DNA of 60,979 bases, counting the filler, from Diploschistes diacapsis (lineage: Eukaryota), in the NCBI GenBank assembly GCA_023645945.1. It is 9 parts of 9 records of this genome, joined end to end, with 100 filler letters (N's around TTAATTAATTAA, not from the genome) between each part and the next. Parts side by side here need not be neighbours in the genome. Positions count along the whole stretch, not along the records: positions 35,324 to 39,522 come from JALAIB010001752.1; 8 more parts are not named here. One strand, written 5' to 3'. A program made the translations under genes and the position numbers. The notes beneath the pieces are model-generated. The model did no database searches. It saw only the letters and a list, made by a program, of their open reading frames with translations, and was not told where the DNA came from. This document shows positions 4,213-41,345 of this stretch, in pieces (the first letter of the stretch is position 1; each line of letters starts with the position of its first letter).

Positions 4213-4312
4213 NNNNNNNNNNNNNNNNNNNNNNNNNNNNNNNNNNNNNNNNNNNNTTAATTAATTAANNNNNNNNNNNNNNNNNNNNNNNNNNNNNNNN
4301 NNNNNNNNNNNN
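4213..4312. other. Artificial contig spacer (N44-TTAATTAATTAA-N44); also at 30920-31019, 35224-35323, 39523-39622, 43821-43920, 48115-48214, 52406-52505, 56694-56793
   Basis: The same 100-nt N-flanked linker, with stops in all six frames, occurs eight times. Confidence 0.98.
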
Positions 4313-10226: not shown

Positions 10227-11805
10227 TTAACCGCTACATCTCCCTAAACAAGGCCCAACAGCTCTCCACTGCGGAACCTCACCTCTTATAGAGGGCATGG
10301 AAAATAAACTTGGTCGTCCACTCTTTAAGGGTTTTAATATTGTGTTCAGGTCCGTATCTACTTCCCATGACACCACCAAAGGGTATGCCAAGGATGTTCT
10401 GGTGCAGTTATTGAACAAAACCATACCCGCTTGCCTTCTCCGACAGACTCGCTCCACGTCTTTGGTGAAGACCGAGGCTACGATTCCATATTCGGAATCG
10501 TTCGCGACGCGTACCGCCTCATCTTCATCCTCGAAGGAGCCCACAGTGACGACGGGTCCAAGGATCTCTTCCTGCGCGATGGTCATGGAAGGCTTGACGT
10601 TCTTGAAGACTACCGGAGCAACGAAGAGGCCGTCCTTGCACTCCGGGTCTTCCGGCAGCTTGACTTCGAACGCAACCTCTTCGCCCCCCCCCCCCCCGGC
10701 AATTCCAATGTATCCTTGAAGCCGCTTCTGCTGCGCTTGACTCACACAAGAACCAACATGTGTTCCCCTTTTTAGGCCGTTCCCAAACTGCAGCTTGCCG
10801 ATGCCTGCTGCAAGAGCCTCCACAAAACTTGGATATGCCCCTTGCTGTACATAGATCGGCGATGATGCGGTATAAGTTCCCCCTTTGTTGGAAAAGCCGC
10901 CTTCAAACGCTGCACGAACTGCCTTGTCAAGATCTGCATCGTCAAACACGACTATCGGATTCTTCCCACCAAGCTCGAGAGACAATGACTTGACTTAGGA
11001 CTAGCAAGTCTTTGCAATTATGGTACCTGTCTTGATCAAGCCTGTGAAGGAGACCATTCTAACAGTGGGACCTTCTTGCAGACAGTCTGAGGGACGTCTG
11101 GGCCCCATCCAGGAACTGCTTGCAGAACTCCTTCTGGAACTATGTCTGGAGTAACTCAACAATATGCATGACAGTTAAAGGCACCTGCTCGCCAGGCTCG
11201 AGGGTCATGGCATTGCCGGTAGCCAAAGCCGGAGCCGACTTGCCACCCATGTGGATGGAGGCCAATTAAATGGTAATATTCCTATCTCGAGTCAGCATTT
11301 CCGTGATCGGGTCGTCCACCAAAGAAGCGCACCGGCACAGACACTGCGAGGCTCACACACAGTAGTTACGAGCACCGGCCCGCAGTCATAGAGTTCCGAG
11401 GGAAGCTTTGTCGACCAAAGGTCCAAAGTAACGAAAGATTTCACTGACAGGTACAGTCGAACATCACAGTGTCTTGCATTGGCTTGCCAATTTTTCATAC
11501 ACAGGATGGGTCGCAAGCTCCTACCTATGTTGCTCGGGTATGGTTCCACATTTCCTCATGCACGCTGCTCGTTGCACAAGAGGCAGGACACTCCGGGACT
11601 CAAATGTTTTCTGGGCCTTTTCGATGGCCTTTTCGGTTGTCGCAGCGTTTCCACTCTGGACTTTGGTAATGACGTTGCCAGTTGCTGGGTTATGGAACTC
11701 GAAGAGATGGGTCTCGTCGTCGCAGGAATACTCGAATTTGGTAACATCATCGTACTTTGGGATCGTATTTGGAGCTGCAGTCTGTTGCGTGATCTTAGAA
11801 TCCAC
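10227..11805 (-). pseudogene. Aldehyde dehydrogenase pseudogene
   Basis: ALDH pieces in several frames: FHNPATGNVI, FNWPP..GGK..PALATGNAMTLEPGEQVPL, SFTG, LELGGKNP, IAQEEILGPV, ANDSEYG. Multiple stops and frameshifts; the catalytic Cys position reads NKGGTYTASS. Confidence 0.85.
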
Positions 11806-30242: not shown

Positions 30243-31269
30243 GAACCAGGGTGCAGAAAGTTTGGCCCCAGTCAATCGAAACGTGGCAGCATACCATCAC
30301 CAGTGCAGCAGCCTTCCAATTCCTTTCTGTTCGAATGCTTCCAGGCCAGGGGGAGTTGGGCAAACGACACACATGGCAGACACGCTTTCGTGATCTCAGC
30401 ATCCTGCGCGGTGAAATTTTACTCTTGGGTCTTGCTTATCGTGTTCGGCATTGCCATTCCTTGCTTTCTGATACCCTGTCTAACGTCGAGGTATATCGCT
30501 GGCATTCGCTAGCACTACTTCACCGATCAAAAATACATTATTTGTAGTTGATGTGGTGCTTCGAGACTGCCAAACATGCTACTCGGGCTAACAAAGTACT
30601 ACATCGAAAATGCTGTTGGTAGAGTGAACTGGTTGCTCTAGCCCTCCTGTCTCCCCTCTCGGAAACCAAAAACTTGGCACAGACACTTGCAGGTTGAATT
30701 AACATGTCAGCCGTCCGGTGCAACACTCCCGGCAACCATGATCGTATCGCTATCCGCCTCTCCATTCGCGTTCCCAGGACCGTCCTCCTTGGCACCGCTT
30801 CCTCCCCTCTCGAGGTCCGGCAATTTCGTCTTTTCATCCACTCTGGTCCTTCCGGCCGCCATTGACCCCAACCCCCTCACCGCCATTGGTGACCCTCCCG
30901 GTTCTTCGCCTCCAAAAGCNNNNNNNNNNNNNNNNNNNNNNNNNNNNNNNNNNNNNNNNNNNNTTAATTAATTAANNNNNNNNNNNNNNNNNNNNNNNNN
31001 NNNNNNNNNNNNNNNNNNNAGGGTGGATTGAGCGGTCGGGTGCAGGGCGAGGAGGTAAGTGAGCCAGGTTAAGGCTGAGGAGGTTGTTACGTGGCTTGAG
31101 GGAGGTTAGGAAGGGGTTGGAAAAGGGAGAAAGAGTAGGAAGGGAAGGAATAGGAAGCTGGGGAGCAGGACGAAGGAAAGAGTGAGGGAAGAACAAAAGG
31201 GAGAGTGACGAAGAGTGGAGTAGGAAGAAGAAAGAAAAACGTAGAAGTAAAGGAATAAGAGAACGGCGC

Positions 31270-35223: not shown

Positions 35224-35323
35224 NNNNNNNNNNNNNNNNNNNNNNNNNNNNNNNNNNNNNNNNNNNNTTAATTAATTAANNNNNNNNNNNNNNNNNNNNN
35301 NNNNNNNNNNNNNNNNNNNNNNN

Positions 35324-35550
35324 ACCCTATTAGGCACTACCCCCGCTGTTACAATAATTAAGAATAGATTTAACTTCGTATAAATAATTTAATATATGAT
35401 TATAAAGCTTTATACGGAATAAACTTATCTTAAAAGCTCGCTTAAAATTTAAAAATTAAATTAAATATAGAAGCGCTCGATCTAACGTAATTATATTATA
35501 ATGTAGTGTTCCGCTTGGTGGTGTGTTCCATTGCGTGGTGAAACACGTTA
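35324..35550 (+). mobile_element. End of a RIP-mutated Fot1/pogo-type DNA transposon
   Basis: AT-rich tract ending in a TIR-like sequence with an internal direct repeat (GTGTTCCGCTTGGTG / GTGTTCCATTGCGTGGTG). It terminates ...ACGT + TA, the usual Fot1/pogo terminus. Confidence 0.6.
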
Positions 35551-38500
35551 CCCATCATGATGACCTCTTATACAACTTTCGTAGAGATCTCTTTTCAATG
35601 CTCCCTACAATATCTTATGTATCTCTTAATTCGTTTCCCTGCCACTAATACCATCACATCGCTGACCTTATCTCCCTTGCTTATCATCTGTTCGTTTTTA
35701 TGCCTCAATGCGTGTGTCAATCCTGCACTTGGCGAGTCTGGCGCTCGAAAATATTGACGGTGCAGAATACATCCCTGAATCTATTCAACTAAACTGGTCC
35801 GAGTATACTCGTTGCAGTCTATTTCACTGTGTCATATATGATATTTCGCTTCTATGGTAGAAGAAGAGTCTACTGAACCGTGCTTCTACTATGGACATGA
35901 ATCGAGATTTTTGGTAAGCTTGTTCTGTATGCACTAGGGTTGTATATCTGCCCGGGTAAGATGGATGAGGTCCTCACAGATGATCGGGAGATACTGAGAT
36001 TGCGTCGGAACAGAGCTCAGATCACACGTACTTCACTAGCACCAATTCATATGACTGGAGTCGTCGAGGTATACTTGCTTGCAAGCCTAGCGCAGTCCGA
36101 AACAAGATGCTGCAATGACAAATGCAGAGTGTGGGCCAATATCGAAATCAGCGCGCCTTCCAAAGAGCCAGGAGAATTGCGTACCATAGAGAAGGCAAGT
36201 GTCAAGCATATACAAACTTTCGGTATTTGTGTAGCGGCGAGAACCTCCCCTGCATATGCCCTAAACCAGGAAATCCTGATGCCAGTCGCCTTATGAAAGG
36301 CGAGCCACTAGAGGAATAGCAAGAGGTTGGTTGCTTAGACGCCTGGAGATAAAGCAAAAGTGGAGAAGTTGGAAGAGCTCACTATTTGATGGCCTGCTAG
36401 TACAACCAGACAGGAAAGACTGAAAGAAAACTGAAAATAGCCGAGGGTTTACTTGTGCAACTGAAGGCCTTGACGATCAATGGTTAGGATAAGATAGGTA
36501 CAAGGTAAGCTTAGTTAAGCATTCCAAGAGAGCGACGCTTGTAGCAAGCGAAGGTTATCATCTTGAAGATGCTTTTTGAAGCAGCTTTAATGATCGGCGA
36601 ATGCTACGCCATAAAAACCTCTTCTTCTCTGTCCTCGACTTCAGCATGTCTTTTATCCACGCTTTTTCCTTACTCTGAATTGCCTCCCAATCGTGCTGAA
36701 GTAGAACTGGCATGCAGTATCACGGATTGGCTGGTCGAGGTGGGCAACTTGGATCTACCCTTGATCAGTACATGCTTTTGATTTAAAGAACGTTCAGAGC
36801 AACACTCTGCTCGTAAGGAAGCAGCCTGTTTGCTACATATCGTGTTCCTTACATTAACTTGGCAACCGTATATGCCATTCAAAATGACAAATTCCTGGCA
36901 AATCTCAAGTGAATGTCTTGAGGAACTTTTATTTATCTCTCAAAGCAATGACCATTTTTCTACTGACATTAGTAACGAGCTTGTTGAGCTGTAAGACTTG
37001 GAAAGCAACATCGGTGCTAAATCAATAGTCACTGCCGATACAGGGGCCGCAAACCGCTTCATTGAATGCTACACTGAAACGAAAACCCGAAAGCTGACAT
37101 TCGGAATGCGGTATCATCACAACACATTGCGTGCTGGTGCAGGCAGCAACTAGCGCGCCAGGGTCATAGTCTGAGGTACTGAGGCAATACCAACCGGGAT
37201 CGAGCTCATCGTCTGACTTCTTTACCCGACTTAGATGTATATGATCTTTCTGGAGGCCGGTCTCGACCATGGCGGCATACTCTAGCGCACCCGATAAGTT
37301 ATCCCCGCCAAGAATAGTGTACCATGCCTATCACAGCCAAAACGGCGCGAAAATTGATTCATTCTGTGGGCTTCTAGAATCTGCAAAAGCACATAGTTGG
37401 TAGGTGTTGATGGCCCTAATGGTAGGATTTCCATGGCTGTGCTGATCACGTAATCAAGAATCCTTGTACGCTATGCTAATTTTGGAATTCTGCCCTAAGC
37501 CATACAGCTCCTCTCCAAGAAGGAACACGCAGCATACATCAAGTGTTCCGGCCAGGATGGTTAGATGCTCTCAAAAAAACAGAGTCGATATCTTATTCTC
37601 TGAGTTCGAGAGCGAATCCCAAATCGAGTATCGTCTATCGTAGCTGATGCGACTTTTGCAGCCTTATCTCAGGCTGAAGCATGTTGTCGAATCGTGATAT
37701 GCAGTACGACGAACCCCTCGCAAGCCTCCTTAGCTTCGAATCTAAACCCTTATGCAAAGGCCAGCAAACTTGATTGGTTTCGAAAGCAACGGTATATCCC
37801 ATTAGGTGATACCACATCCCTTTGTGAATACCCTCCACCTTCTACGCTGCACGTTTGGAAAGAATTTCAAGGTCATGCAATGCGCATTTCTTTGCATTGT
37901 TAGTGTATCGGGATTTTTTGAACGCTATGCCTTCCTTACGATCTCAGCTACCTTGGGCCAAAAACTGTGCATGGATCATTGCGGCCCAGACACCTGATTT
38001 GTTGTACACAATGTTGATATATCAGCCAGTTCAGACCTGGTATGGAATAAATGACAGTCATGCGGCCATACGGCGAGGAGGAAATGTGCTTAGACGTGGC
38101 ACTTTGTGTTTTGATCCTTAACCTGCGTCTGATATGGGCAAGGGACTCGTTTCTTCTCGTGCACGACATGCTGCAATCGGCCGATCCCACGGACCCCATG
38201 CCCTAGAATTCACAGGAATAGACGGTTTCGGTACTCAGAGCTCAACATCGAACTGCATCGCCTGCTCGCCCCTTTGCCCACGTCGCACCGAAACGATTCT
38301 ATATGGCGAAACGAGCTTGAAGACCTTGAAGGCCGGCGCTGTGGCTCTCATGACGTGGAGTACTGTTACATATCCAGAGAACCGGGCTGCAACATCCTGC
38401 TTAGACAACAGGGACAAGCAGCACAGCATCGTTTCATCGACATTCTTGCCGTCTTCTAAATCAAGTCAAGTGGCAACAGAAGCTCGATAATCCCTTGAGA

Positions 38501-38695
38501 GTGTGCCCAGTCTCGATCTGTACAAAGGAGAGCTGGTGCACTCCACAACGGGACAGACATTCAAACCAAAGGCTCTGGAAAGCATTCGATCAGCCATATC
38601 TAGTTTCACTCTCCTTCTCCATACTTATCTCTTACCGTTCCATATCCCACACCTTTATCCGTTATCCCTCAGTTACACTCCCCCATCCCCCGAAA

Positions 38696-39499
38696 ATGTA
38701 TTTCAAGTCCGCCACCATCGCCTATTTCGCCCTCCTCCTCTCAACCACCAGCGCCCAGCCCTATACTCCAATCCACGCACGCAGCCCAGACGCCAAAGTT
38801 GACGCGGGCAAAATCGCCAAAAGGTTGGGGGGGACCTCGAAGCCTGCGGTTCAGGCTGGCTGCAAAGGCTTCAGCAAGCGCGACCTCGGCGGCCTCTACG
38901 AGCTTGCGGCCCGCGACCCCAAGGTCAACGTCGGCGGCATCTTCAAAGACATGGCCCAGGGCGTGGGAACGGTCCAAGGAGCCGGCGTCAAGGCGCTCCT
39001 CGGGCGCGAAGCTCTCGACGACGACGAGCTACAGCTGCTCAGCGGCGGGGGGTTTCAACGTCCAGCAGGCTCTGCCGGGCATAGAGAAGGCCATGGGCAC
39101 GGTCGGGGGGGGGGCACGATCGGAAAAGCGCTCCTGCACGTACCGCGAGGCCAAGGGGGCCGAACGACGTCGCCATCCTCAACGCCAGCGCCGGGATCGT
39201 GGGCCAGGCCCGCACCGGAAAACGCGACGCTGCCGCCTTTTTACTTGGACGACGAGGGACGCGTTCGACCTGTACGCGCGCGATGCCGAGGCCGATCCCG
39301 ACGCCTTTCTCGACGGACAATGTTTTGACATGCATGCCCGCGAGGCAGAGGCTGGCGGTAAATTCAACACCGTTGCACCGGAGCTTGTCAGGGCCCGCTC
39401 TGGGGATCATTAACTCGGCGAAGCAGAGGCCCCGAGGCCGAGGCCGAGTTTGAGGAGCTTGCGGCGAGGGGTTTGGAGTATGATGATGTCTTTTCTTGA
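38696..39499 (+). CDS. Secreted repetitive peptide precursor (Kex2/Ste13-processed type); several frameshifts in the 3' half
   Basis: Signal peptide MYFKSATIAYFALLLSTTSA; spacers IHAR-SPDA, KR-DL..LAAR-DP, KR-DA, LYAR-DAEADPDA, MHAR-EAEA, EAEAEFEELAAR; related core peptides lie between the spacers. Confidence 0.7.
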
Positions 39500-41345
39500 A
39501 GGGTGCGCGGGCCGTGATGAGGNNNNNNNNNNNNNNNNNNNNNNNNNNNNNNNNNNNNNNNNNNNNTTAATTAATTAANNNNNNNNNNNNNNNNNNNNNN
39601 NNNNNNNNNNNNNNNNNNNNNNAGAAGGCGGGGAGAGACGCACAGGTCTTGGAGCATGGGACGTGGGTTTTTGGGCGCGAACTAGAAGGGGGGAAGGAGG
39701 GTTAGTGTTTTTGGCGATGGCGGGAGCGGGGGGGATTGGTTGCGTACATTCATGGTTGGTGGCCGAGAGGGTATGAGGGTATGGGGGTAGTGGTGGTGTG
39801 GTTTTTTTTTCTGTGGTTTGTAGGCGAGGATGCTGAATGGGAGGAATCTCTGTGGAAAGTTGAAGCTTGGAGTCGGCTTGTCGGAGGTCAGAGGTTTTCG
39901 GGTGGTTAGTCAGCGGGATCGGTGTCAACAACGGTTTTCTGCGGAAGAACTTTTACGTTTACTCGCTTTCGTATCAATCAATACAAGCGTCAGTTGGAGC
40001 TTAGGTTGGTTCTTCCAGTCTGTAACGAGAGCTGGATTGAAGACGTCGAGCATCGCATGGGAACCCCGGAAGGAAGATCTTCACCCGAATTGTTGTGCTG
40101 CAGCTGCCTCGAGAAACGATGGCACCTCGACACTCCCAACTACGTCGTGGCAAGCGCTATCTGTTCTGGTGCTGCCTGCTTTGATGTGATATACGGCAGG
40201 AACTTGAACTATGTGCAGCATATGCTATTGCAATGCCTGTCCGACTCTCGACTCTATACCGTCCTTGGGAAGAGCTATGTATATCGGATCATTATTGCTG
40301 CGCACCTCGTTCCTTTCATACCATTTCTGCCATAAACTATCTGCATCGGTTCTGTTCTATATCTATCGGCTTTCAATTAGACTATGTCTTCCGAGTATCT
40401 TAAAGTGCTTTTAGTACCTCGCTATGCTATCTGCTCCAGCCTTCTGCTTCCCACCACACGTAGTCTCTCATTCATGATCGTTTCTGAATTTATTTTGTAC
40501 TCATACTTGAGTGTTCCTCCAAAATGGCGGGATTTCTCTCATGATGTGGCTAGCTCGAATTGTCACCGTGTACTTAGAGAGGCCTCAGAACCTTGATCTT
40601 GATTTCTCCAAGACTGACTCAGAACCGACGTATAGAATACGCGTTACAATTCTCAAGAATGCGAGGAAGTGAAGCTGTCAGAACTTGTGATACTCATATA
40701 AAAGATTAGTTTGCCTAGCAGCATTTTTCTGTCGTCAGCTATCTAGAAGATAGTTAAGTTACAACCGTTCTATACCAAAAAGCGGTAGCAAGTGAAGTTT
40801 CTCCTGTCTGAACTGGTGATGTTTCTGTCGTGATAGAAAGTGTGCCGGTAAAATGCTTCTCCGAATCCGAAGCTTCTGCACGCTACCTCTCTTGGACAAG
40901 CAGAATTCTGTGATATCGCCATCCCTTACGCTATTCCATCCCCATACCATCTGGCGCTCTCTCATCGAGATATCAAGGTGCCATAGATGCTCAAGACTGC
41001 AAAGCCGCACCTGGGGCTGTGCAGTCGAAGAGAGTTCCGTAACACTAGGACAAACGCAGATCAAAGGAACCCCTTGCGCCGATGCTCGTCAAAGAAAAAG
41101 AAATCTTTCTGCTTATTGTTGTTGGCTAATTTGCTCGAGATTATTTTCATAAGCGTAAATTCTTTTCGAATACTTTTTATATCACAACATTGTACCGGCT
41201 ATCACCCTTCTAAATTGAAATTTCTTCAAGCAACTTTCAGTTATTCTCACCAGGGTTTAGCAAGACTTTAATTTGATCACGGTCCAGTGCAAAGCATAAG
41301 AACTGGTAATCGACGTCTCTCCGGCCTGCGGAGGCCTTCCTGTCA

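Follow-up and report, generated by a model that had tools for sequence, protein, structure and literature searches.

A frame-broken gene of the lichen fungus Diploschistes diacapsis and an unnamed family of predicted multi-core peptide precursors with monobasic arginine sites

A gene at positions 38696 to 39499 (plus strand) of a 60,979-base stretch of DNA from the lichen fungus Diploschistes diacapsis (assembly GCA_023645945.1), hereafter called the window, had been read from its sequence as encoding a secreted precursor in which acidic spacers alternate with amphipathic cationic cores (the original prediction). Precursors of comparable layout are known from animals and fungi. Honeybee prepromelittin and the apidaecin precursor, the latter with several cores, carry acidic X-Pro/X-Ala pro-pieces that are trimmed dipeptide-wise before the cationic peptide. 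These insect venom and immune precursors have no sequence relation to the proteins described here, in which an Arg-specific endoprotease step would precede the trimming at every unit. Among the fungal systems are the KEX2-processed repeat proteins (KEPs) of Ascomycota and Basidiomycota, which have a signal peptide, repeated cores between basic sites and STE13-type dipeptides (Le Marquer 2019, PMC6339444; Umemura 2020, PMC7329392; Vogt 2022, PMC9769878; these and the further papers cited are drawn on as excerpts). STE13 removes X-Pro or X-Ala dipeptides after KEX2 sites, and even-numbered runs of such residues are its recognised signature; cleavage after a single Arg has been seen in basidiomycete KEPs expressed in Pichia (PMC9769878). 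The prepro-alpha-factor of Saccharomyces cerevisiae presents the same succession of signal, pro-region, endoprotease site, Glu/Asp-Ala dipeptides and core (PMC9769878), but its sites are K-R and its cores are identical and 13 residues long, whereas the gene in the window has A-R sites, diverse cores of 17-28 residues and no pheromone-type core. Ece1 of Candida albicans is also a secreted fungal polyprotein cut at basic sites and yields candidalysin, an amphipathic, helical, membrane-damaging peptide (PMC9769878); it differs by its K-R sites and by having only one peptide as the toxin, and X-Pro trimming is not described for it in the excerpt. Rep1 of Ustilago maydis, a KEX2-processed repeat protein giving amphipathic peptides (PMC9769878), has K-R sites and a structural role. 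Sequence similarity to Ece1 or Rep1 was not detected in phmmer or profile searches.

We place the gene, as a representative from a lichen fungus, in an unnamed family of polyprotein precursors that are predicted to be secreted and contain no cysteine, with a probability of roughly 0.55 for the whole explanation including the processing and the decay of the locus. The observation behind the original prediction was largely right, its processing logic gains strong comparative support, and the locus is probably decaying. Word-index protein searches with the first 118 residues matched the deposited model alone, a product of 203 residues annotated as 'MAG: hypothetical protein LQ340_007637 [Diploschistes diacapsis]' (P0001; MAG, metagenome-assembled genome). 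A phmmer search of P0001 against 1.84 billion representatives gave nine matches at E<=1e-3. Among them were P0001's own copy (P0002), an open reading frame (ORF) in frame f1 of a Logan contig of sequencing run X1 (frames are named f0 for that of the start codon, f1 and f2), and the intact, metagenomic protein P0003 of 319 residues (E 2.7e-12), which is orthologue-like and has the N-terminus and the order of units of the window gene. Four repeat proteins with a strikingly regular unit (P0004, P0005, P0006, P0008) followed with E-values from 6.8e-9 to 9.5e-5. The long proteins P0007, P0009 (a fish protein) and P0010 matched in the acidic part only and were dropped without closer inspection, as likely hits to acidic low-complexity sequence. 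A profile search recovered 17 proteins, 13 of them new, from environmental contigs of 0.9-1.6 kb and, as one hypothetical protein, from Crepidotus variabilis (Agaricales). The family as used here consists of P0003-P0006, P0008 and P0011-P0023, i.e., 17 basidiomycete-type proteins and P0003. An hhalign comparison of the window gene and P0003 with the 17 members gave a probability of 93 % and an E-value of 3.5e-7 over 107 columns. The significant similarity covers the unit of site plus core, and the window gene has the family's site of aliphatic P4, Arg at P1 and following dipeptides.

Intact members start with a putative signal peptide, followed by three to seven units of an acidic spacer, an L-x-A-R site before Asp or Glu, one to three X-Pro/X-Ala dipeptides and a core of ~30 residues. 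In the 17 basidiomycete-type proteins Asp or Glu came next after 264 of 406 Arg (65 %) and after 19 of 346 Lys (5 %), at a background of 0.19 for both acidic residues together. Leu occupied P4 in 156 of 263 of these sites (59 %) and Ala occupied P2 in 120 of 263. The dipeptides after the Arg of the site were DP (62), EP (14), EPEP, EPAP, EPNPEP and EPIPEP, an even and variable number of X-Pro steps before a conserved K/S/N-F core start. The number of units differed between close relatives, e.g., P0006 and P0011. Cutting after each Arg before Asp or Glu yields cores of 31-38 residues that start with D/E-Pro and are net positive, together with acidic pieces of 8-14 residues ending in AR or ER. 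The 68 distinct basidiomycete-type cores had a median length of 30 residues, a median charge of +5 (+2 to +9) and a median maximal hydrophobic moment (muH) of 0.57; for 48 of them amphipathicity was supported by a shuffle p <=0.05. Their N-terminal half is amphipathic and rich in Lys; a hinge of Gly-Pro or Ala-Pro joins it to a C-terminal half that is hydrophobic. Cores within one protein are paralogous, not near-identical. The 18 precursors have net charges from -2 to -18 and no Cys. Fifteen of the 17 basidiomycete-type precursors end in -LD after an acidic stretch, as a conserved tag.

From the KEPs the family differs in its mostly monobasic A-R or I-R sites before Asp or Glu with Leu at P4, with dibasic sites in only 14 of 264 cases, in cores of ~30 residues that are cationic, amphipathic and diverse within a protein, and in the acidic spacers that would also be cut. 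Similar cores between dibasic KR, RR or KK sites, by which KEPs have been surveyed, were found neither in the window gene nor in the family; pipelines keyed to KR, RR or KK would miss the family because its sites are mostly monobasic. Copies of one short peptide of ~10-13 residues, as in ascomycete alpha-pheromone precursors, are not what the window gene holds: its cores are 17-28 residues long and all different. Several searches placed the family no further. No Pfam family scored above the cut-off for 13 of its proteins, phmmer of P0012 against all chains of the PDB gave 0 matches at E<=10, and the ESM Atlas returned no usable feature match and no cluster, with all structure rows at a template modelling score (TM) <=0.30. 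A scan of metagenome contigs with the alignment of window gene and P0003 matched 230 patterns and found no relative, and a scan with the alignment A3 retrieved only two loci (L001, L002) on 1.5-kb contigs. Both are uninterrupted ORFs with flanks resembling untranslated regions, without poly-A, which is not proof of expression. The family's motif strings were absent from the full-text literature searched, to which subscription journals do not belong, and from three text supplements to Umemura 2020 and four to Le Marquer 2019. The literature searched on KEPs, on amphipathic or antimicrobial basidiomycete KEPs and on cecropin-like fungal polyproteins held no description of the family, and the excerpt of a 2025 survey of lichen gene clusters for peptides made by ribosomes and then modified post-translationally (RiPPs) mentions neither Diploschistes nor KEPs.

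The site statistics suggest the following processing. An Arg-specific kexin-type endoprotease would cut after the monobasic Arg in the late secretory pathway, with the aliphatic P4 aiding recognition. A dipeptidyl aminopeptidase of the Ste13 type would trim the X-Pro and X-Ala dipeptides, and a carboxypeptidase of the Kex1 type would take off the C-terminal Arg. The linear, amphipathic helix-hinge-helix peptides thus predicted to be released may act on membranes, as antimicrobial or lytic agents. The acidic spacers, which more than offset the charge of the cationic cores, may keep them neutralised until cleavage and may themselves be cut into pieces of ~10 residues, each with a terminal Arg. 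Neutralisation of a cationic core by an acidic pro-piece is the usual logic of host-defence peptides. The original prediction had proposed a multi-core precursor with Kex2 cleavage followed by dipeptide removal; the endoprotease sites and the X-Pro/X-Ala dipeptides are strengthened by the homologues, but classical K-R sites are not the rule, the sites being mostly monobasic A-R. In the window gene KR stands after cores 1 and 4 only and the other boundaries are a single Arg. Kex2 cuts some mono-arginyl sites, at which P4 matters, and yapsins accept Lys at P1 (PMC6624476). Processing by a yapsin-type protease is less likely: acceptance of Lys would shred the Lys-rich cores, and no pattern of Lys before Asp or Glu was seen. 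The Arg-only sites, the aliphatic P4 and the acidic P1' are the reason why an Arg-specific kexin-type enzyme fits better.

The window gene was translated, scanned for motifs and aligned to P0003 and the family, with the following result (all on the plus strand unless stated).

38600-38695: pyrimidine (CT)-rich leader with A at -3, read directly; GC skew -0.44 over 38474-38773.
38696-38755: start codon and signal-peptide-like first 20 residues in f0, by inspection; 12 aligned positions identical to P0003 (of its first 16).
38756-38794: N-terminal pro-piece ending IHAR, then SP-DA (translation, motif scan).
38795-38881: core 1 (27 residues, charge +5) with C-terminal KR; maximal muH18 0.48, shuffle p 0.057.
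38882-38920: acidic spacer ending ELAAR, then DP, a motif common to the whole family (translation, motif scan, family alignment).
38921-39007: core 2 (28 residues, charge +2) with C-terminal R; aligns with core 2 of P0003.
39008-39052: acidic spacer up to the G6 run 39047-39052, the first frame change, f0 to f1 (frameshift alignment, GC periodicity).
39051-39151: core 3, a paralogue of core 2, in f1 (39051-39113) and f0 (39113-39151), split at the G10 run 39105-39114; its GFN start and its f0 tail ending VPR match P0003.
39155-39225: core 4 with its KR, both in f2, behind the G5 run 39155-39159, at which the frame passes to f2; aligns in f2 with a P0003 stretch ending ILGQAR, third-position GC 0.85.
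39226-39353: acidic spacers, with the change from f2 to f1 (possibly via f0) at the T5 run 39238-39242 and the G3 run 39256-39258; 8 of 9 residues identical to the first P0003 site.
39270-39305 and 39330-39353: the f1 sites LYAR with DA-EA-DP-DA and MHAR with EA-EA, respectively (motif scan).
39354-39429: core 5, in f1 (39354-39404) and f2 (39403-39429), split at the G4 run 39402-39405; the least certain split.
39430-39499: C4 run 39430-39433 (change to f0), EA-type dipeptides, last ELAAR, short acidic tail and stop codon TGA at 39497-39499.
39500-39522 (no strand): last 23 bases of the contig, followed by an artificial linker; the X1 contig ends at the same base.

The coordinates of the original prediction proved exact: the ATG stands at 38696, f0 is open to a stop at 39326-39328, and the last f0 segment ends with the TGA. 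CT-rich tracts such as the leader precede strongly expressed genes in filamentous fungi. By inspection the N-terminus is signal-like: it has a Lys at position 4, a hydrophobic segment and small residues in front of Gln21. The homologues begin in a similar way. Sites matching [ILM][HYA]AR number five in the gene, at 38771 and 38903 in f0, at 39270 and 39330 in f1 and at 39458 in f0, with I, L, L, M and L at P4; the predicted dipeptides after the first four were all confirmed. The pattern [ILMF][YHA]AR[DESG][PAL] occurred five times in the six frames of the whole window, and all five matches lie within the gene. The core sequences, rich in Gly, Lys and Ala, were recovered in translation as they had been written, and the proposed paralogy of cores 2 and 3 appears as co-linear DNA blocks with 51 invariant columns of ~99. 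Tandem-repeat and direct-repeat finders saw only short, degenerate repeats in the DNA.

Past 39047 the family-like reading leaves f0: core 3 begins in f1 and ends in f0, core 4 and its KR lie in f2, and the remainder follows in f1 (the sites LYAR and MHAR, then core 5), f2 and again f0. Four frame changes are robust and seven are needed for the maximal reading, all between 39047 and 39433. Frameshifts near the contig end had been foreseen correctly, but they do not all lie in G-runs: the runs concerned are G6, G10, G5, T5, G3, G4 and C4. The frame-corrected reading itself held up on three counts, i.e., co-linearity with P0003, codon periodicity and the site motifs in f1 and f0; the DNA blocks common to units 2 and 3 support it as well. 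In a frameshift-aware alignment the intact P0003 was co-linear with window segments in f0, f1, f2 and f0. Under a frameshift penalty of 25, no fewer than three of the frame changes persisted. Heavy penalties were used, since a light penalty made spurious shifts within the intact 5' half. The codon-position GC periodicity switched from f0 to f1, f2, f1 and f0 at the same places where the alignment breaks, with a third-position GC of 0.79 for f0 in the 5' part, 0.85 for f1 at 39051-39110 and 0.85 for f2 at 39160-39240. The deposited model P0001 (38696-39413) joins f0 to f1 by an intron and translates an out-of-frame Arg/His-rich sequence. An intron was rejected as cause of these shifts, since the homologous segments adjoin one another and are co-linear with P0003, which has no introns; no room is left for one. 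This contiguity makes the intron of P0001 probably a gene-prediction artefact over a frame-broken gene.

Real decay is the fairly probable origin of the frame breaks and may have left a truncated product of two cores. The locus, a predicted pseudogene that keeps the signal-like start and cores 1 and 2 in one frame, is most likely a copy that is truncated and in decay rather than a functional gene for five cores. The single uninterrupted reading frame of intact family members is missing from it, with the same breaks in X1, a lichen metagenome, whose Logan contig is the product of a second assembler and was identical over 38400-39522 at a word depth of 76.8. Elsewhere in the window runs of 5-6 bases do not interrupt long ORFs: 11 such runs lie within an ORF of 971 residues, 9 within one of 1207 and 5 within one of 633. 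The G7 run 38827-38833 in the 5' half of the gene is in frame; thus the assembly has no general homopolymer problem. Two relatives of the locus from other studies, with ~90-97 % identity, were found in X2 (labelled as an organism) and X3 (a rock metagenome). From core 2 in f0 to the f1 segment, joining the frames needs a length change congruent to 2 mod 3, and X2 and X3 differ from the window by -2 and -12 bases, respectively, which puts both out of frame as judged by net length only, from indels among those listed. Decay is likelier than error because X1 is identical at depth, X2 and X3 are out of frame and the long ORFs are intact. Over the f0 part, X2 differs from the window by six non-synonymous changes and one synonymous change, and the divergence of ~3 % is close to the 4.7 % of the upstream non-coding DNA (11 of 234 bases). 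In X2, 24 letters replace the 102 bases at 38824-38925, an in-frame net loss of 78 across the boundary of cores 1 and 2. Lost are the last part of core 1 together with its KR, the spacer, and the site ELAAR-DP; a change in unit number is therefore under way between close relatives. Further, X2 is rearranged at 39110-39155.

Several points weigh against the explanation given here. The E-values may be inflated, low-complexity repeat proteins having been compared. The window cores were announced as cationic and amphipathic, which holds poorly: it applies partly to core 1 and to core 2 (+2, muH 0.40, p 0.076) and hardly to cores 3-5, whose values do not exceed those of shuffles. The charge is 0 for the opening part of core 3 and for core 4 (p 0.7), and +2 for core 5 (p 0.57). 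The window cores are thus weakly cationic and weakly amphipathic, their hydrophobic moments reaching the 5 % shuffle level at most, and the cores of P0003 are near neutral as well (+1 per core). As window and P0003 cores are so weakly charged, a membrane-lytic or antimicrobial role has its weakest case in this lichen-type branch, and toxin or antimicrobial activity is a candidate function. Concerning the frame breaks, X1 is probably the read source of the assembly, hence not fully independent, and the net-length judgement of X2 and X3 has the limits named above. All frame changes stand at homopolymer runs, while the broken part has no stops and its motifs and periodicity are well kept; a sequencing or assembly error would give the same pattern, since the breaks are at runs and the motifs are kept. 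It is conceivable, though clearly the less likely course, that the gene is intact in the organism, that the four to seven changes are homopolymer errors or local misassembly near the contig end, and that the full five-core precursor is made. Clean motifs without stops and with GC periodicity are unexpected after long neutral decay, the changes are confined to the last 480 bases of a short contig, and in X2 the length of the G5 run 39155 differs by one base. Opposed to this are the identity between two assemblers, the long ORFs and the G7 run in frame, and the relatives from two other studies that are out of frame by net length; moreover, runs of 3-4 bases are not typical error sites.

For the intact members we take the family to be, by prediction, multi-copy precursors of linear membrane-active peptides, with a surface-active 'repellent' role as the main functional rival. 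Rep1 of Ustilago maydis is KEX2-processed into amphipathic peptides that form amyloid-like fibrils and affect surface hydrophobicity (PMC9769878). Peptides of the family might in the same manner line hyphae, or air spaces in thalli or fruit bodies, as structural repellents instead of acting as antimicrobials or toxins; the family cores are amphipathic and those of the lichen type Gly-rich and near neutral. We consider this improbable on the whole, given the basidiomycete-type cores with their charge of +2 to +9, cationic N-terminal half, Pro/Gly hinge and hydrophobic C-terminal half, and given that the searches returned no similarity to Rep1. The design of cationic half, hinge and hydrophobic half is typical of lytic host-defence peptides. 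It resembles insect cecropins in the helix-hinge-helix design only, the phmmer search of P0012 against the PDB having revealed no sequence relation, and the window cores fit it poorly.

It is very unlikely that the protein stays uncut and functions in one piece, as a secreted repeat protein in which acidic helices take turns with basic ones. The alternation of acidic and basic segments is regular, and an AlphaFold2 (AF2) model from the 17-sequence alignment has local helices over acidic sites and cores alike. The model has no globular or packed fold, however, with a predicted local distance difference test (pLDDT) of 52 and a predicted template modelling score (pTM) of 0.25, and the Atlas model reached a pLDDT of 0.42; AF2 of the first 118 residues of the window gene was uninformative (pLDDT 44). 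The preference of acidic residues for following Arg over Lys, the Leu at P4, the X-Pro count that varies by whole dipeptides and the variable number of units are features of cleavage sites, not of a fold. A signalling function of the cores, after the manner of pheromones or quorum peptides, which has been proposed for many KEPs, is scarcely likely, for although alpha-pheromone precursors have the same overall architecture and STE13-type dipeptides (PMC9769878, PMC7329392), the family cores are 25-38 residues long, differ within a protein and are Lys-rich and amphipathic, without short identical repeats.

Read as precursors of membrane-active peptides, the intact family members would matter in several respects. 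To our knowledge almost every known ribosomal antimicrobial peptide from fungi is rich in disulfides (defensin-like or AFP-type), linear amphipathic ones being rare besides candidalysin, and the literature search found no counter-example. If the cores are released, the family is a new source of linear membrane-active peptides and a testable defence or competition factor in mushrooms and lichens; kexin-type processing at monobasic L-x-A-R sites would be used systematically, and KEP surveys keyed to KR or RR would under-count fungal precursors. More tentatively, both phyla of the Dikarya, represented by mushroom-forming Agaricomycetes and at least one lichenised ascomycete lineage, may possess a ribosomal class, so far undescribed, of cysteine-free, linear helix-hinge-helix host-defence peptides, made several per acidic polyprotein via monobasic L-x-A-R cleavage and dipeptidyl trimming and missed by KR-based KEP mining. 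Such a class would be a fungal counterpart of the insect cecropin- and apidaecin-type and the amphibian multi-copy peptide precursors. The lesson of the window gene itself is smaller, as it is likely a dying copy; its greater value is the unnamed precursor family with monobasic sites to which it leads.

The gene forms the 3' end of a contig of 4,199 bases (35324-39522) in the MAG assembly. Its own GC is 0.66-0.68, while the 3.4 kb upstream (35324-38695) have a GC of 0.32-0.53 and a longest ORF of 131 residues. In nine upstream ORFs of >=80 residues on this 4.2-kb contig no Pfam match was found, including DUF3328. The original prediction had favoured linear over dikaritin products from the absence of a DUF3328 oxidase; this absence on the contig was confirmed, and the cores are long and non-identical, which does not fit the short identical cores of a dikaritin precursor, but the contig is short. 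The flank comprises only ~3.4 kb, without a recognisable gene, so that the missing DUF3328 says little and no cluster can be read from it. The window consists of nine contigs joined by N44-TTAATTAATTAA-N44 linkers (4213-4312, 30920-31019, 35224-35323, 39523-39622 and four more); these are artificial, so neighbours across them carry no meaning. Seven of the nine contigs measure ~4.19-4.21 kb and stand in descending order. On other contigs lie usual fungal genes whose long exons are open, among them Clr2, VEFS-box, EH-domain and cation-efflux genes. With a GC of 0.32, the last contig (56794-60979) stands apart from the others at 0.46-0.57. It contains 18 homopolymer runs of >=6 bases and might come from an organelle or from another organism in the bin. 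On the minus strand at 10230-10994 lies an open frame of 255 residues with a 14-base homopolymer run inside.

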